Shown: positions 21,001-30,000, counted from the first letter of the stretch. The stretch: 59,289 nt of DNA from an uncultured bacterium (GCA_965371515.1 CBDUYR010000013.1:1-59289), one strand, 5' to 3'. Program-made: the numbers.

Positions 21001-24000
21001 AGGCCGAACCAGAGCTTCAGACCGTTGCGTTCACTGCCCGCGAGGGTCAGCTCGGCCGGTCCCACCGGCGTTTCGTACGCGACAGTCCCTGCCCATCCTG
21101 TAAAGGCATTCTCACTCCTGAAGAGTTCGCTCCTATCGTCGACCGCCGCACCGGCGTTGAAATGCCCGGCTGCGAGCCACCTGCCGGTGATCTCTATCTG
21201 AAGGGCGGCCGAGGCGATGTAGGCATTCGACCCTGAGATCTCGAAGGGCTCGTAACCGTAGAACGAGACGTCACGCTCACCGTAATAATCGAACCACGAC
21301 ATGATCCCGCCGAGACTGTACCTGTGATGGGGAAGGGGCCTTCCACCGCCGGTGATCCCGTAGAGAAATCTGCCACGCAGCGATACGCGCCTGTGAAACG
21401 GGAGGGCGGCGATGACATTGGCGTACCCCCTGTTGTACGAGATCTTGTTCGCCGACATCTCGGGGAAGGAATACCCTGAGAGCCTGAGCAGGAGCCCCCT
21501 TCGCGGCATCCAGGACCGGTCGAGCGTGTCGAGCCACAGGTCACCGCCGACCAGGAACAGGCTGCCGGATTCGGTAGAGGTACCTTGCGGCGCAATGTCG
21601 GGCCTGATGCTGTACCATTCCCCGCCTGCCCCTATTATGCAGCGGAACATGTAGCCCAGGGAGGTGTCGGCCAGGAGGGCGGCCCTTCCTGCCCTGACTC
21701 CCCACCTTGCCGTTCGCTCGCCGTTCTCGTAATCCTCTATATAATCGTCGACGTAGTTGCCTGCAAGGCCGGGCCTGAGCCACGTGCCGAGGCCGGCTTC
21801 GAGCGTATAGAGACCCTGGAGGTATACCCTGCTGCTGAAGACCATGTCGATGTTGAGCGTCGAGCCGTGACCTATCAGGTTTTTCATCTGTGCGCCGAGA
21901 AGGACCGAGAAAGACCATCGCGTATCGTACCTGAGGCCCAGGCCGAGGTAGTCCATCTTCTCTTCCTCGATGTCGAGGACGAGCGTCTTTTCCCCGTCTT
22001 TCCCCATGAAGCGGTACGAGATCCTCGAGAAATACCCCGTGCTGTACAGTTTCTGCAGCGCTTTGTCCATATCGTCCGCGGTGATCGAGTCGGGCGGCTT
22101 GATCCCGAGCAGGGATGACACGAATTTCGAAGGCACCTCGGAGAGACCGTCGAGCCGCACCCTCGTGATCAAGACAGGGCTGACCGGCGTCTCTTCCATC
22201 TGTTCAGGGGGCTCGCGGAAGCCTCCCGTTTTCTCGACGAGCGAGCGGATCTCTTCGATATGCCTGCGGGCCGCTTTCTCGCCCTGCTCGATGATGAAGG
22301 GGACGTCATCGAAATCGAGGGTGCCCACCGAAACGAGGTCCGGCCTGATATAGAGGTCGCAGTATTTTTTCTGTGCGTCAATCGTCGATTTCATCAGGAT
22401 GTCCATGGTCTGATCGGTGATCTCGAGCAAGCTCCTGAGACTGTCCGCGCCGACGAGTTCACTCGAGACATCGATGCATATGACGATGTCGGCGCCGAGC
22501 TCGATAGCGTCGACGGCTGGCAGGTTTCTCACGAGCCCTCCGTCCACGAGCAGCCGTCCGTCCATTTCGAAGGGTGAGAAGGCGGTCGGGATAGCCATGC
22601 TTGCCCTCATCGCGTCGGCAAGGCTGCCGCTGTCTATCACGTACGGATCGCCCGTGACTATGTCGGTCGCGACGCAGGAGAAATCGCGGGGGAATTCACT
22701 GAAATCGTCGATCTCCAGGACGGGCCAGCAGAGTTCGTAGAAGAGCCTGTGTATCTTCTGACCCTTTATCATGCCAGAGGGGAGGTTGACCCTGCCGCCG
22801 TCTACAGGGAAGGCGAGGAGGTACCGGTCCCTGAACATCTTCTGACGCATCGAGATGTATCTGCGGTCGACCGTCTCGCGGAACAGGCCGAACCAGTCGA
22901 CGTTGTTCGCCATATCTTCAAGAAAGGCGGGGGAATAGCCTGCCGCGTACAGCCCGCCGATGATCGAGCCCATGCTCGTGCCGGTGACGATCTCGGCCTG
23001 GAGCCCCTCCTCCTCGAAGACCTTGAGTACGCCTATGTGGGCAAGGCCCCTGGCGCCGCCCCCGCTGAAGGCGATGCCGATCTTCGGCGGCTCCGAACCG
23101 GTTCCGGCCGCAGTGCCTGCCTGGGTGATAGAGAGGAGAACGGCGACCGTCAGCGAAAATCTCTTCATGAGTTGATACATGGCCGCAATGCTAACAGCAA
23201 TCGGGGTTCTGCGCAATACCGCTGCTGGAGGGATCGAGGTTCAGATGAACTTTTCCCTGTTCTGGAGGTTATAGAGCCCGTACAGGATGGCGAGCACGCT
23301 GCCGACAGCGAGCATGATGCGGTTCTGGTAGATGATCCCGGACCATGCGGCAGCCGTCATCTGGTCGGGTACCTGGAATGGATTGAGGAAGAGGTTCCAC
23401 TTGCTCGTTGACAGTGCCTCGGCTCCTATCCAGAATGCCATGCCGATGACCACCATGATCACAGCCGTCCCGTTCCCGTTTCGAATTACAGTCGAGAACA
23501 TGAACGAGAGCGCCCCGAGGAAGAAGATCGGGAACATCAACTGGTAGACCATCTCGAATATGGGAACCTGTACGAATACGACTGAGCTCAGCACAGTCAG
23601 TACTACGAGCAGCGAGAAAGTAATAAGCCATATAAGCGCCATCCTCGACAGCCATACCTTGTACCTGTAGTCAGGTATACCGAAAAGGATCTCGATCATC
23701 CTCGAGTCGACGTCGTTCTGGATGCCGAAAGCGGTAGGGTAGAAGACGAGGAGGATGCCGGGGAACATCAGTATGTAGTATACATCGGGCACGCCCGGGT
23801 TCGAATCGGACGAGAAGAACGAGATGGCTCCTGCGGCGAGGAAGAATATAAAGGAGGCCAGCAGGAAGTAGATAAATTTGTTGGCGAAGATGATCTTCAG
23901 GTTGTACGAAGATATCTTCCTGGCCGAGTAGATCATGTTGCGAACCCTGTCAAACCTGCTCATCCGCGTCACCTCCCGCGGCTTCTGCCGCCGCTTTCCG

Positions 24001-27000: not shown

Positions 27001-30000
27001 CATGACGAGGAAGATATCGAACGATCCCGTCTCCTCAATATTTGAAGAGCCTGCACTGAGGCCGACGCAGAGTATGATGCTGACGAAGAAGATGACGAGC
27101 GCCCCGACCGTTGTCCTCGCAGGGTATCTCATCCCCGTCTTGAGCAGGACGCGGTATATCTCCATCATCCTGCCGCCCGAGGACTGGACCGGGCTGTAGT
27201 CGGTTCTTTTCTCTTTAGAGAGGAAGTAATGGCTGACCATCGGGACGAGCAGAAGGGCGGCTGCGAGGGAGACGATCAGCGTAGAGACGATTGACACTCC
27301 GATGTGCTTTCCGAGACTCTGAACTATGAAATTCGAGGAGAAGACGAAGGGAAGGAAGACCGTTATCGTGGTCGCCGTCGCGGCAGTTATTGAGCGCCAG
27401 ACCTCGCTCACTCCCTGGATTACGGCTCTGTCGGCGCGGATACCCTTCGATGCGAGCCTGTATATGTTCTCCAGGACGACGACTCCGTTGTCGAGGAGCA
27501 TTCCGATCGCAAGTGCGATCCCGATGAGGGTGAGGGAGTTTATCGATATCCCCGCCGCGTAGAAGAAGTTCATCGCGATGTAAACCGAAATGGGAATCGA
27601 CAGGGCGATCACGAATACGAGCCGGAGGTTCCTGAGAAAGAACCACAGTATGACGATAGCGAGCAGTCCGCCGATGAGGGCGAGCCTGACAATGAGATTT
27701 ATATTGCCGCGTATCGACTCGGCGCCGTCGTACTGGACGACGATCTCCATCTCCTGGCCACGCATCTCGCGATTCAGTCGCTCGACCATCTCGAGGGCCC
27801 TGTCGGAGACCTCGATCATGTTGACCATCTGGTCCTTCATCAGGTTCATCGAGACTGTTTCCATGCCGTTTACACGGGTGATGTTCTCCTGCTTTTTCAC
27901 GCCGAAGTAGATCTCGGCGATGTCGCCTAGCAGGACGGGCCCGTCTGGATGCACGACGATCTTCTCGAGGTCGGCGATGTCGAGATATTCAGTCACAACA
28001 TTGACGAAGTATTTCCTGTCCCTTTCGACCGCCTGACCGACGAAGGTATTGGAAGCGCCGTTCTGAGAGATAAGAGCGGAGATCCTCGACGCTGTGAGCC
28101 CGTAGGCCTCGATAGCCTCGTCGTGGAGGACGATGTCGACCGACTTTTCCCGGCCGCCCGTAACGCTTACCTCGGCAATCCCCTCTATGCTCTCGAACTT
28201 CCTTCTGATCTTATCGTCTACTACCCGGCGGACGCGGTCGATGCCGCCCGTTCCCCGGATCTCGAGGTCCATCAGATTGTCAGAGATCCTCTGTGTGTCG
28301 AACTTGATGACCCTTACGAAGTAGTCCTCGGGGATCGAGGATCTGATCTCGGCGATCTTCTCCTCGAGTTTGAGGTAGGCGTACTTGATTTCTACGCCCT
28401 TCTTGTATTCGATCGTGATACTGCCCGACCCGCGGCCTATGTCTGATTCGATACGCTCGATCCCCTCGAGGGTGCCGGCCGCCTCCTCGATCGGGATAAT
28501 CGCCTCTTTCTCGACGCGGACCGGATCGGCGGGCCTCATTGACCGGACCATTACAAAGAGGTAGGGAAGCTCGATGTCTGGGATCAGCTCCACGGAGAGG
28601 CGCCTCTGCGATATGATTCCGAGCATCACAAGCCCGATGAAGAGCATGCTGATAAAAGTCTTGCGGCGGATTATGAAGTTGCCAGCGCTCATCGGCTCCG
28701 ATCCAGGACGGAATAGACACAGGGTATTACTATGAGGGTGAGTATCGTCGACGTAACCAGTCCGCCGATAACCGCCAGGGCCATCGGAGAGCGGAGCGAG
28801 ACTCCCTCGCCGAATCCCAGGGTGAGGGGGAGGAGCGCGAGGATCGTCGTGGCGCTTGTCATCACGATAGGCCTGATCCTCATCCTGCCGGCGGCGACGA
28901 TAGCCTCCATCTTGGCCATGCCGTCGCGCTTCAGACGATTGATCGCATCGATCAGGATGATCGAATCGTTCACCGCTATGCCTACGAGCATGATCATCCC
29001 GATATAGGCCATGACGCTCAGGGGTCGGCCGAGCGCGAAGAAGATCAGTACGGCGCCTACCCCGGCCAGCGGAATCGTCAGAAGGATCGCGAACGGATGT
29101 ATGAGCGATTCGAACTGCGAGGCGAGGACCATGTATACCAGGATCACCGATAGTATCAGGGCAAATCGCAGGTCGCGGAATTCCTCACGCCTCTTGGCCT
29201 CCTCGCCTGCGATCGCGAGCCGGTAGTCGGGCGGAAGGTCTATCGCGGCGAGGGTGCCGTTTATCTCGCGTATCGCGTGGTCGAACGGCCTGCCCTCACG
29301 CTTGTGCGCGGTGACGATTGCGGCCCTCATCTGCCCGCGCCTGTTTATCTCGCGCGGCGCAGTTCCGATCTCGAGGGTCGCCAGTTCGTCGAGGCGGTAT
29401 TTCCTGCCGCCGGAATCGACGTAGATCCTGTCGAGGTCACCGAGTCCCACATCGGGAAGCATTACTGTGATGTCGGTCTTCTCTCCGCCGCGGTCCCATT
29501 CGCCCGCGTTCCGGCCGGTCAGTCTCGATTCGAGGGCTCCGGTCACCTCGCTGAGCTGTACCTGGAGCATACCCGCCCTGAGGCGGTCGACGACGACGCT
29601 GACCTCGGGACGACCGTGCTCGAGGGATGTCTCGACATTGTACAGGTCCTCGATTCCCGAGAGCTTCTCCCTGACCTGATCGGCAAGAAGGGTAAGAGTT
29701 TCGAGGTCGTCCCCCTTGATCTCGATCACCACGGGAGCAGAATCCGCCCCCAGGATGGAGCGAAGGGCCGTCTGGTCCTGCACGAGCCTTGATTCGACGC
29801 CCGGTATCGTCGCGAGCGCCGCTCCGAGGCCGGACATGATCTCTCCGGAGCTGCGGCTGTGCCCTTCAGCGAACTTGATCTTCACGACAGCGGTGTTTTC
29901 GTCCTGGAAGACGGAAGATTCGTCGCTGCCTATTCCGGTCACCGGCCCGGCCGTGCTGTACAGAGTCTCGATCGCGTCGCCGAAGATTCCCTTCATCAGC

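Follow-up and report, generated by a model that had tools for sequence, protein, structure and literature searches.

A seven-gene operon joining an RND permease to a membrane-split ABC ATPase: a proposed two-engine envelope exporter

The window analyzed here is a whole contig of 59,289 nucleotides from an uncultured bacterium (GCA_965371515.1, CBDUYR010000013.1). On its minus strand, to which all coordinates below refer, lies a seven-gene operon encoding, in order, a free ABC ATPase, a 1127-aa permease, an OMF, a periplasmic adaptor (MFP), the unfused RND permease RND1, an RND permease fused to an ABC ATPase, and the small protein g00911. The initial annotation had described the last five genes as an operon; these five stand, but two further conserved upstream genes had been missed. 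The order of the seven is unbroken in 36 of 40 homologous regions fetched, and in G704, although the free ATPase with its permease, the fusion, and g00911 are scattered over three distant sites, every one of them is retained.

The operon starts with the free ATPase (NBD-A; 38220..39101), a 293-aa protein matching Pfam ABC_tran, whose motifs are invariant in 38/38 homologues. It was found in 39 of the 40 regions, the last being cut by a contig end, and is the best paralogue of the fused nucleotide-binding domain (NBD) in this genome (42% identity). The permease that follows (34785..38168) is predicted by AF2 (pLDDT 84.5) and structure search to comprise a membrane domain, TMD-A, with seven hydrophobic segments (aa 1-280), a periplasmic M1 aminopeptidase fold (aa ~294-850), and a domain resembling CBM35 and the xanthan lyase C terminus (aa ~944-1127). 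In the model, TMD-A most resembles NosY (7o0y_D; Z 17.2, rmsd 3.8, 233 aligned), its other top fold matches being the exporters PmtD (Z 14.6) and ABCG2 (Z 14.3), and ABC2_membrane_2 is matched in 19 of 38 family members. The M1 region would correspond to ERAP1 (3qnf_A; Z 21.9, rmsd 5.0, 449 aligned) and the C-terminal domain to xanthan lyase (6f2p_A; Z 16.5, rmsd 2.1, 133 aligned); Pfam Golvesin_C is matched in the protein at E 7.6e-13. The HExxH zinc motif occurs in none of 38 members, while the M1 fold is still kept. The "ABC half-pump" that had been proposed for the fusion thus has its other half just upstream, co-inherited with it.

The TolC-like OMF (32858..34762; Pfam OEP and SPOR) has 634 aa and carries an additional SPOR domain at its C terminus (about 32861-33139); across the 40 homologous regions, OMF ORFs reach at most 522 aa. 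The MFP (31781..32848, likely start 32830) is a probable lipoprotein with a lipobox-like FASC, and it scores above the TIGR01730 cut-off. RND1 (28689..31784; 1031 aa) matches ACR_tran at E 7e-208 and is 30% identical to the fused RND. The two RND genes follow the MFP gene in conserved order, and the ABC component is therefore not the sole inner-membrane transporter for the adaptor. No biosynthetic or regulatory gene is kept upstream of the operon in the 40 regions, where only small lineage-specific groups occur, and the neighbors therefore do not name the cargo. A promoter and terminator scan of the locus gave no useful signal above shuffles. The co-oriented patatin-POTRA-Omp85 gene (20985..23216; Pfam) next to the operon probably lies outside the system: of the 80 loci, no more than 5 have such a gene after g00911, and these are all from close relatives.

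The sixth gene (23950-28692) is a single ORF of 1580 aa without an internal stop. Its first part (aa 1-1024; 25621..28692) is a 12-TM permease that matches the whole 1021-position ACR_tran model (5-1021, E 2.3e-154) and thus has the HAE-1 architecture with two large periplasmic loops, and ABC_tran is matched at residues 1288-1431 (E 1.8e-28). With all the named ATPase motifs found as well, the fusion proposed in the initial annotation is borne out, and so is its conservation: a search with residues 1020-1580 returned 4426 hits out of 7999 scored candidates, and all 120 that were listed, at 55-93% identity, have both PF00873 and PF00005. The RND, linker, and NBD matches fall within one ORF in 67 of 80 loci fetched with g00911; of the other 13, four have no upstream DNA, six are cut by the contig start, one is cut by an N gap, and two are frameshifted, in both cases between the RND and NBD parts and in loci with other broken genes. 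Six broken fusion copies carry their frameshifts at six separate places (about 726, 787, 1043, 1091, 1128, and 1300), so that no recurrent frameshift or natural split site emerges among them. Logan contigs from runs X1 and X3 span the RND-NBD junction with no difference, a support that is not independent because these runs are possibly the source sample. The exclusion of read-through by assembly error, as initially argued, thus holds.

Several apparent variants of the fusion dissolved on inspection. The 1036-aa members of a Bacteroides fusion cluster proved to be RND1 paralogues rather than truncations, a lone NBD seemingly without RND (L040) was an N-gap artefact, and the 1764-aa frame of a seeming RND-NBD-permease fusion (G662) runs across an N gap. 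In a second candidate triple fusion (P0102, 1859 aa), the extra length consists of longer loops and contains no permease. Among the best 150 representatives at 50% identity, no long g00911 fusion was found, the longest (391 aa, with an NBD piece) being probably chimeric. The fusion holders are marine sediment metagenomes, with no RNA datasets among those listed, and the system also occurs in records of cultured gut Bacteroidales, Parabacteroides gordonii and B. thetaiotaomicron.

The region behind the RND part had been described as about four more membrane helices followed by a full ABC-type NBD, and we find six helices in a different arrangement. Two form a linker (aa 1035-1084; 25441..25590), as judged by AF2 helices and family hydropathy, and the other four (aa 1137-1249) are placed by AF2 in an insertion of ~175 aa (24844..25362) inside the NBD itself (NBD-B). 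Ahead of this insertion lie strand 1 and the A-loop Tyr1109 (aa 1098-1110; 25363..25401), with I1100, K1107, and Y1109 present in 54/54 homologues; the rest of the domain (aa 1284-1560; 24013..24843) contains Walker A (GPNGAGKT, 1303; 24763-24786), the Q-loop (Q1350), the signature (FSGGMKQR, 1403; 24463-24486), Walker B (ILVVDEPT, 1423; 24403-24426), the D-loop, the H-switch (H1459), and a C-terminal domain of the DrrA/GldA type. All catalytic motifs, from the A-loop through Walker A, Q-loop, signature, Walker B Glu, and D-loop to the H-switch, are invariant in 54/54 intact homologues. The modeled NBD aligns with 1vpl from strand 1 onward (235 of 238 residues at an rmsd of 1.6, with Z 28.6), and NosF is among its top Foldseek matches. 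The spacing from the A-loop Tyr to Walker A is 181-232 aa in 55/55 aligned fusions, versus 23 in the free NBD. The NBD is thus full in its motifs but neither contiguous nor soluble, with the four-helix insertion separating strand 1 from strand 2, and an ABC ATPase with four membrane helices set into it, as the model predicts, has an unusual fold. The conserved residues of the insertion are Trp, Pro, Phe, and Tyr, with no conserved mid-helix charge; six extra helices without conserved charge are what would be expected of a scaffold, not of a pore. An ESM Atlas search with the linker and insertion (1028-1282) gave no usable match.

The last gene, g00911 (23241..23963), encodes 240 aa with six hydrophobic segments. 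Of 80 loci, 76 have a fusion-type NBD immediately upstream of it and four have no upstream DNA; relatives occur in 537 species representatives, with no plasmid match. The protein itself has no Pfam match at E 0.05, as initially noted, but among 14 relatives tested, P0484 and P0473 exceed Pfam ABC2 cut-offs, and ABC2_membrane_3 is matched at E<=0.5 in 13 of 51 close members. A profile broadened with distant homologues aligns with TMD-A, the operon's other permease, over 219 columns at a probability of 73%; with the narrow profile, the hhalign probability was 0.7%, the broadened profile did not match the first membrane domain of the stand-alone relative L190, described below, and a PDB sequence search yielded chance matches only. 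A complex model of g00911 with TMD-A scored 0.39 against 0.00 for the best control, a weak pass that likeness to solved ABC-2 dimers could bring about. Among 157 solved complexes, 116 attain the mark, as do 2 among 215 mismatches; with scores no higher than 0.60, just 18 of the solved complexes do so, along with both mismatches. The runs share at least 93% of contacts, with a partner pLDDT of at least 68. Judged by its family's sequences, g00911 is an ABC-2 membrane domain (TMD-B), as the initial annotation had proposed.

The nearest solved relative of the fused RND is MdtB (9lyq, E 1.8e-71). Residues D401, N402, E408, N934, D941, R964, R966, and T971 are invariant in 54/54 fused RNDs, including the TM11 Arg-x-Arg-Pro...Thr motif (with P967), and conservation in the homologue alignment is 0.82 for TM8-12, as it is for the NBD core. 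MdtB has an Asp-Asp pair in TM4 and a Lys in TM10; here, TM4 has Asp-Asn in 54/54 fused RNDs and 51/51 RND1 proteins, and Asn934 stands opposite the MdtB Lys in 54/54, with Asn in RND1 as well. The second Asp and the Lys were called essential in the MdtB/MdtF preprint. Because unfused RNDs of the same genome show it too (C36a and C36b share the Asp-Asn/Asn-Asn pattern and C90 the Asp-Asn), the pattern is a subfamily trait and not decay caused by the fusion. Both RNDs would be driven by proton- or ion-motive force, and the cognate MFP and OMF genes are present.

MdtABC-TolC and MuxABC-OpmB likewise combine two RND paralogues, one MFP, and an OMF, and the subunits of two-RND pumps may divide labor, according to the part of PMC4338810 that we consulted; unlike the present operon, they have no ABC component or fusion. 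A close parallel to the ABC genes is TC 3.A.1.145, a family of ABC-2 permease::M1 aminopeptidase fusions that includes the uncharacterised M. xanthus Q1D520 (1200 aa, 13 TMS; PMC3924187, in part). Its NBDs fall in the same subfamily as those studied here (87/92 support), and an ABC-2 membrane domain precedes an M1 fold in both. The stand-alone relative L190 has a single NBD, which shares 46% identity with the fused NBD and 42% with the free one. With it comes a protein of 1201 aa that has HEVAH and 13 hydrophobic segments, and the stretch running from this protein's second membrane domain into its peptidase domain matches the 1127-aa permease (E 9e-10). The 13 segments within one gene in L190 are divided 7 + 6 over two genes here; HExxH has disappeared, a CBM35-like domain is present in addition, and there are two different NBDs, one fused to an RND. 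Since a free NBD and an ABC-2 permease lie upstream and g00911 is an ABC-2 domain, we infer that the locus holds all the parts of a heterodimeric type V ABC transporter, a relative of TC 3.A.1.145 that is tethered to a two-RND/MFP/OMF pump. NosDFY and PmtCD resemble it in the modeled TMD-A fold and in an NBD with a DrrA/GldA-type C-terminal domain, but their membrane domains are homodimeric, and they have neither an RND nor a membrane insertion within the NBD. In MacAB-TolC and YbhG-YbhFSR, an ATP-driven transporter is likewise encoded alongside an MFP/OMF (YbhFSR being hetero-oligomeric; PMC8277102, in part). There, the ABC transporter is the pump itself; in the present operon, the adaptor is partnered by two RNDs, to which the ABC transporter is an add-on. 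The lengths and annotations of eight genes in a row suggest that BT0295-BT0302 of B. thetaiotaomicron is the orthologous operon. In the portion of Lopes et al. 2024 (PMC11078008) that we consulted, BT0297-0300 are presented as an ordinary RND cluster, with ABC genes and fusion not recognized; they are induced about 2-7-fold by bile, and their deletion gave no clear biofilm phenotype in a strain that may carry a split gene, gene lengths suggesting that the type-strain record has the fusion as two ORFs. These genes do not come up in the main text of the RB-TnSeq paper on B. thetaiotaomicron, and the supplements of PMC8121099 and PMC10434189 contain no rows for them.

We propose, with the balance about even, that the operon encodes a two-engine envelope exporter working by relay. 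In this model, the fused NBD with g00911 and the free NBD with the 1127-aa permease would be the two halves of a single heterodimeric type V ABC transporter, and the six extra helices would serve as a structural clamp parking it against an MdtB2C-like RND heterotrimer, probably with one fused subunit in each trimer. The ABC transporter would spend ATP on flipping or lifting amphipathic cargo (lipid-linked or peptide/glycopeptide-like) from the inner membrane; in the periplasm, the cargo would be bound or presented by the dead peptidase chamber and CBM, and the ion-coupled RND would drive it via the MFP and OMF to the exterior, the gain from fusion being channeling and a fixed stoichiometry. 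The catalytic motifs kept in both NBDs (54/54 and 38/38) and two membrane domains of type V fold or family argue for an exporter. Against it, the RND relay has neither the second Asp nor the TM10 Lys, and a type V system whose extracellular domains are large, NosDFY for example, need not carry substrate across the membrane.

In a possible, if unlikely, alternative, the ABC half would act as sensor or mechanotransmitter and not as a transporter: ligand on the dead peptidase/CBM head would elicit ATP cycling that switches the tethered RND or loads periplasmic cargo. NosY as top match of TMD-A and a periplasmic head that retains its fold without HExxH are consistent with this, as is the lack of a conserved regulator gene beside the operon, so that control could be post-translational; however, the further top matches of TMD-A are exporters, and RND pumps normally work without an ATP-cycling switch. 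It seems doubtful that ATP directly powers the RND cycle, with the tether passing NBD closure to the RND membrane domain, as a substitute for, or an addition to, a proton relay that has weakened in low-energy anaerobes. Such a role would fit the covalent link via membrane helices, the Asp-Asn and Asn in both RNDs, and the marine sediment origin of the holders, but the unfused RNDs of this genome share the pattern (the two-RND C36 operon without any Walker A protein), the other relay residues are invariant, and the NBD has a cognate membrane domain of its own. Equally doubtful are two independent exporters in one operon, the fusion fixing only co-expression and location with no substrate hand-over. 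Each parent does exist alone, as the unfused C36 operon and as a stand-alone NBD with a 13-TM permease-peptidase, and the type strain of B. thetaiotaomicron may have two ORFs; yet no natural split site recurs, and the fusion is kept over several phyla with a six-helix clamp that would be costly for mere co-expression. Nothing found in the RND-NBD fusion itself speaks for an assembly or gene-calling artefact of the kind seen in the two N-gap variants above, and this reading is refuted by the predominance of single-ORF loci and by thousands of independent homologues of similar length.

Tripartite pumps are classed by their inner-membrane engine, RND, ABC, or MFS. Our literature search, which covered few subscription papers and the Chem Rev review in part, found no description of an RND-ABC fusion, in line with the initial claim of an undescribed architecture. 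The fusion may have been overlooked because the annotation of the B. thetaiotaomicron type strain apparently splits the gene. Each part comes from a known family, and the novelty lies in the assembly: an ion-driven pump subunit and an ATP motor, usually alternatives, appear joined in one device. We consider it fairly probable that this is a trans-envelope machine of a new class, coupling ATP- and ion-gradient-driven transporters physically and functionally in one complex. A membrane-split ATPase would clamp a heterodimeric type V ABC transporter to an RND heterotrimer, and a dead peptidase would be the periplasmic hand-over chamber; in the boldest form of this reading, ATP hydrolysis would drive or gate the RND cycle. 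The presence of the system in cultured gut Bacteroidales makes it tractable, and two engines on one conserved chain make the hand-over directly testable. If true, it would be the first built-in case of a long-supposed relay from a transporter crossing the inner membrane to an RND collecting from the periplasm.

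The initial annotation had placed an RND permease and an ABC nucleotide-binding domain (NBD) in one 1580-aa chain, and this reading holds. The ORF of the fusion gene g00912 (positions 23950 to 28692, minus strand) is stop-free, its residues 5 to 1021 match Pfam ACR_tran (E 2.3e-154) and residues 1288 to 1431 match ABC_tran (E 1.8e-28), and its ATPase motifs lie at residues 1303, 1403, and 1423. The claimed conservation was likewise recovered: with residues 1020 to 1580 as the query, 4426 proteins were found among 7999 scored candidates, and all 120 homologues listed carry both families, at 55 to 93% identity. 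We also inspected the best 80 of 537 loci found by alignment search with g00911, the downstream gene, among GTDB species representatives; their records bear the labels Krumholzibacteriota, KSB1, Calditrichota, and Bacteroidota, among others. In 67 of the 80, a single ORF contains the matches to RND, linker, and NBD; of the remaining 13, ten meet a contig end, one has an N gap, and two carry a frameshift between the two parts. Six broken copies break at six different positions. With 67 intact loci and breaks so scattered, an artefact is ruled out, assembly read-through included.

The system is patchy: within the window's phylum, 26 of 151 genomes have it (two of them weak or partial), and it occurs in 4/401 sampled genomes of the phylum and 54/401 of the order of another genome, G192; these counts take in the centre genome and incomplete MAGs. 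Since JGI automatic names give both COGs for homologues of the fusion, its domain pair is already visible in databases. We found no description of an RND-ABC fusion in the literature searched, nor in the available part of a tripartite-pump review (PMC8277102).

The ATPase itself is split. I1100, K1107, and Y1109, invariant among 54 intact fusion homologues, lie in a stretch that corresponds to the strand ISVKGLSMTY in the free NBD, a 293-aa ATPase of the same operon, where 23 residues separate the tyrosine from Walker A versus 181 to 232 in the fusions. In an AlphaFold2 model of residues 860 to 1560 (mean pLDDT 76, pTM 0.59), TM12 is followed by two helices (1035 to 1084), the strand (1100 to 1109), four helices (1137 to 1249), and the rest of the NBD. 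The modelled NBD aligns with the ATPase 1vpl over 235 of 238 residues at 1.6 Å, and because this alignment starts at residue 1098, the strand completes the NBD sheet. In the model, the NBD is thus interrupted after its first strand by four membrane helices, so that the extra helices number six in total, not the roughly four first annotated. What is conserved in them is Trp, Pro, Phe, and Tyr, and nowhere a mid-helix charge, which suggests that the six helices serve as a scaffold. The catalytic motifs of the fused NBD are all invariant across homologues.

The 240-aa product of g00911 (23241 to 23963, minus strand) matched no Pfam family, as originally noted, and its search returned 5504 homologues among 6117 candidates. 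Weak matches to ABC2 families were seen in 13 of 51 close members, Pfam cutoffs were passed by 2 of 14 more distant relatives, and the top cluster carries the name of a putative ABC-2 permease in the ESM Atlas. A narrow g00911 profile gave no alignment with TMD-A, the membrane domain of the operon's 1127-aa permease, versus 219 columns (73%, E 3e-5) once 37 representatives had been added; this alignment sets the invariant DVDSRMIEILFGIPDY stretch of g00911 upon the TMD-A coupling-helix motif. The modelled complex of g00911 with TMD-A passed weakly (0.39 versus 0.00 for the best control), and this pass may stem from likeness to solved ABC-2 dimers. The relatives' Pfam matches and the broadened profile agree with the likeness to ABC-2 permeases first proposed, and by sequence g00911 is the operon's second ABC-2 membrane domain.

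The operon comprises seven genes. The five first recognized (OMF, MFP, RND, fusion, and g00911) stand, and two conserved genes 5' of the OMF had been missed: that of the 1127-aa protein, then that of the 293-aa ATPase, at spacings of 22 and 51 bp. Each of 43 genomes, chosen from the 80 loci for long upstream DNA, holds a match to the 1127-aa protein, and the order free NBD-permease-OMF-MFP is present in 39 of 40 fetched regions (one of the 39 lacking the NBD at a contig end); 36 of the 40 overlap the g00911 locus directly. No conserved gene lies further upstream than the free NBD in these 40 regions. As modelled (pLDDT 84.5), the 1127-aa protein combines a type V TMD (NosY, Z 17.2; PmtD, Z 14.6), an M1 aminopeptidase fold (ERAP1, Z 21.9), and a CBM35-like C-terminal end (xanthan lyase, Z 16.5); HExxH occurs in none of 38 family members.

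Several features of the surroundings deserve mention. A patatin-POTRA-Omp85 (PlpD-like) gene (20985 to 23216) begins 24 bp after g00911 and is shared with close relatives only, a patatin gene following g00911 in just 5 of 80 loci. The window also holds a myo-inositol-1-phosphate synthase gene divergent from those of a LysR regulator and an inositol monophosphatase (15166 to 18328), and a gene for a probable 380-aa lipoprotein without a Pfam match (18444 to 19586). The OMF ends in a SPOR domain (32861 to 33139) that is 63% identical to the end of an ORF on another contig of this genome (C4, 16108 to 16386). Because OMF ORFs of the 40 homologous regions reach 522 aa at most and a contig of another study (X6 record 31) crosses the OMF-SPOR junction without gaps, this looks like a recent, real acquisition. 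On contig C1 (7979 to 11341), a paralogue sharing 28% identity with the 1127-aa permease stands without an NBD or RND of the operon's type; its neighbours resemble KdsB, KdsA, KdsD, and LptB genes (labelled by eye from translations), hinting at a possible link to envelope glycolipids. Second copies occur likewise in three other genomes (G151 to G153), and in G704 (contig C1; loci L169, L181, and L182) the operon is scattered over at least three places about 280 to 580 kb apart, every piece intact.

At locus L190, in the phylum of G192, a stand-alone relative consists of a single NBD plus a protein of 1201 aa that has 13 hydrophobic segments and keeps HEVAH intact. TC 3.A.1.145 is described with this architecture in the available part of PMC3924187. 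The 1127-aa permease profile matches the 1201-aa protein from its second TMD through into the peptidase. In a tree with 16 other NBDs of the genome, the fused NBDs and the free NBDs make up one clade each, and the two clades are sisters (support 97/95). Once NBDs like those of TC 3.A.1.145 are added, a single group unites them with the fused and free NBDs (87/92), and the sister relation of fused and free NBDs receives only 84/80. We infer that the ABC part descends from a TC 3.A.1.145-like transporter, whose TMDs would have been split into two genes, its peptidase inactivated, and one of its NBDs captured by an RND.

Among cultured relatives, Parabacteroides gordonii has a named fusion of 1569 aa, and a partial Bacteroides thetaiotaomicron record is 99.7% identical to a 1557-aa fusion with all motifs. 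BT0295 to BT0302 are probably the tags of the orthologous operon. Lengths read from floor values in the available part of supplement 12 of PMC4380924, as reciprocals of integers divisible by three, are 297, 1101, 498, 353, 1038, 1064 + 503, and 233 aa; the medians of our analysis are, in the same order, 298, 1118, 497, 352, 1034, 1574, and 240 aa. BT0297 is annotated as an OMF and BT0299, in a table row of PMC10434189, as an RND, and supplement rows of PMC11078008 leave a single RefSeq tag slot between BT0299 and BT0302. As these lines agree, the fusion probably stands as two ORFs in the type-strain record. In the available parts of PMC11078008, Lopes et al. report induction of BT0297-0300 by bile (BT0298, log2 2.8, padj 0.009; others, padj 0.06 to 0.16) and a BT0297-0300 deletion without clear biofilm effect. 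In the supplements, the "BT0300" value of the RND table (log2 2.0378) is the one that the full table gives for BT_RS01480/BT0302. BT_RS01475 is absent from the full table; the fusion gene itself seems to have been left unquantified. The available text and supplements of an RB-TnSeq paper (PMC8121099) do not mention these genes, and the available part of PMC10197588 holds nothing informative on the locus.

In its RND part, every one of the 54 fusions has D401, N402, E408, N934, D941, R964, R966, and T971, and the equivalents are found in 51 copies of RND1, the operon's unfused RND. MdtB has Asp-Asp and Lys, charged residues that the available part of a preprint (10.1101/2025.04.25.650598) describes as essential, where the fusion and RND1 have Asp-Asn and Asn. 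The Asp-Asn and Asn pattern recurs in unfused RNDs of this genome, so it is a trait of the subfamily and no argument for ATP replacing the ion gradient; the RND is likely ion coupled. Of the other mechanisms weighed, a sensor or gate role for the ABC part seems unlikely. A third mechanism, an RND powered by ATP, we regard as improbable, and two pumps working independently are equally hard to credit.

The likeliest mechanism of those weighed, to which we give an even chance, is a relay exporter in which a heterodimeric ABC transporter hands cargo over to an RND heterotrimer. The fused NBD and g00911 would pair with the free NBD and the permease, and the resulting heterodimer would be clamped to an RND heterotrimer like MdtB2C (described in the available part of PMC4338810). 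Sequences and models establish the architecture, the motifs, and the gene order, whereas how the complex assembles, which way it transports, what powers it, and what it carries are inferred. The system is a real and apparently undescribed hybrid machine, in which the ABC transporter would raise amphipathic cargo to the periplasm, the dead peptidase/CBM head would present it, and the RND would expel it.
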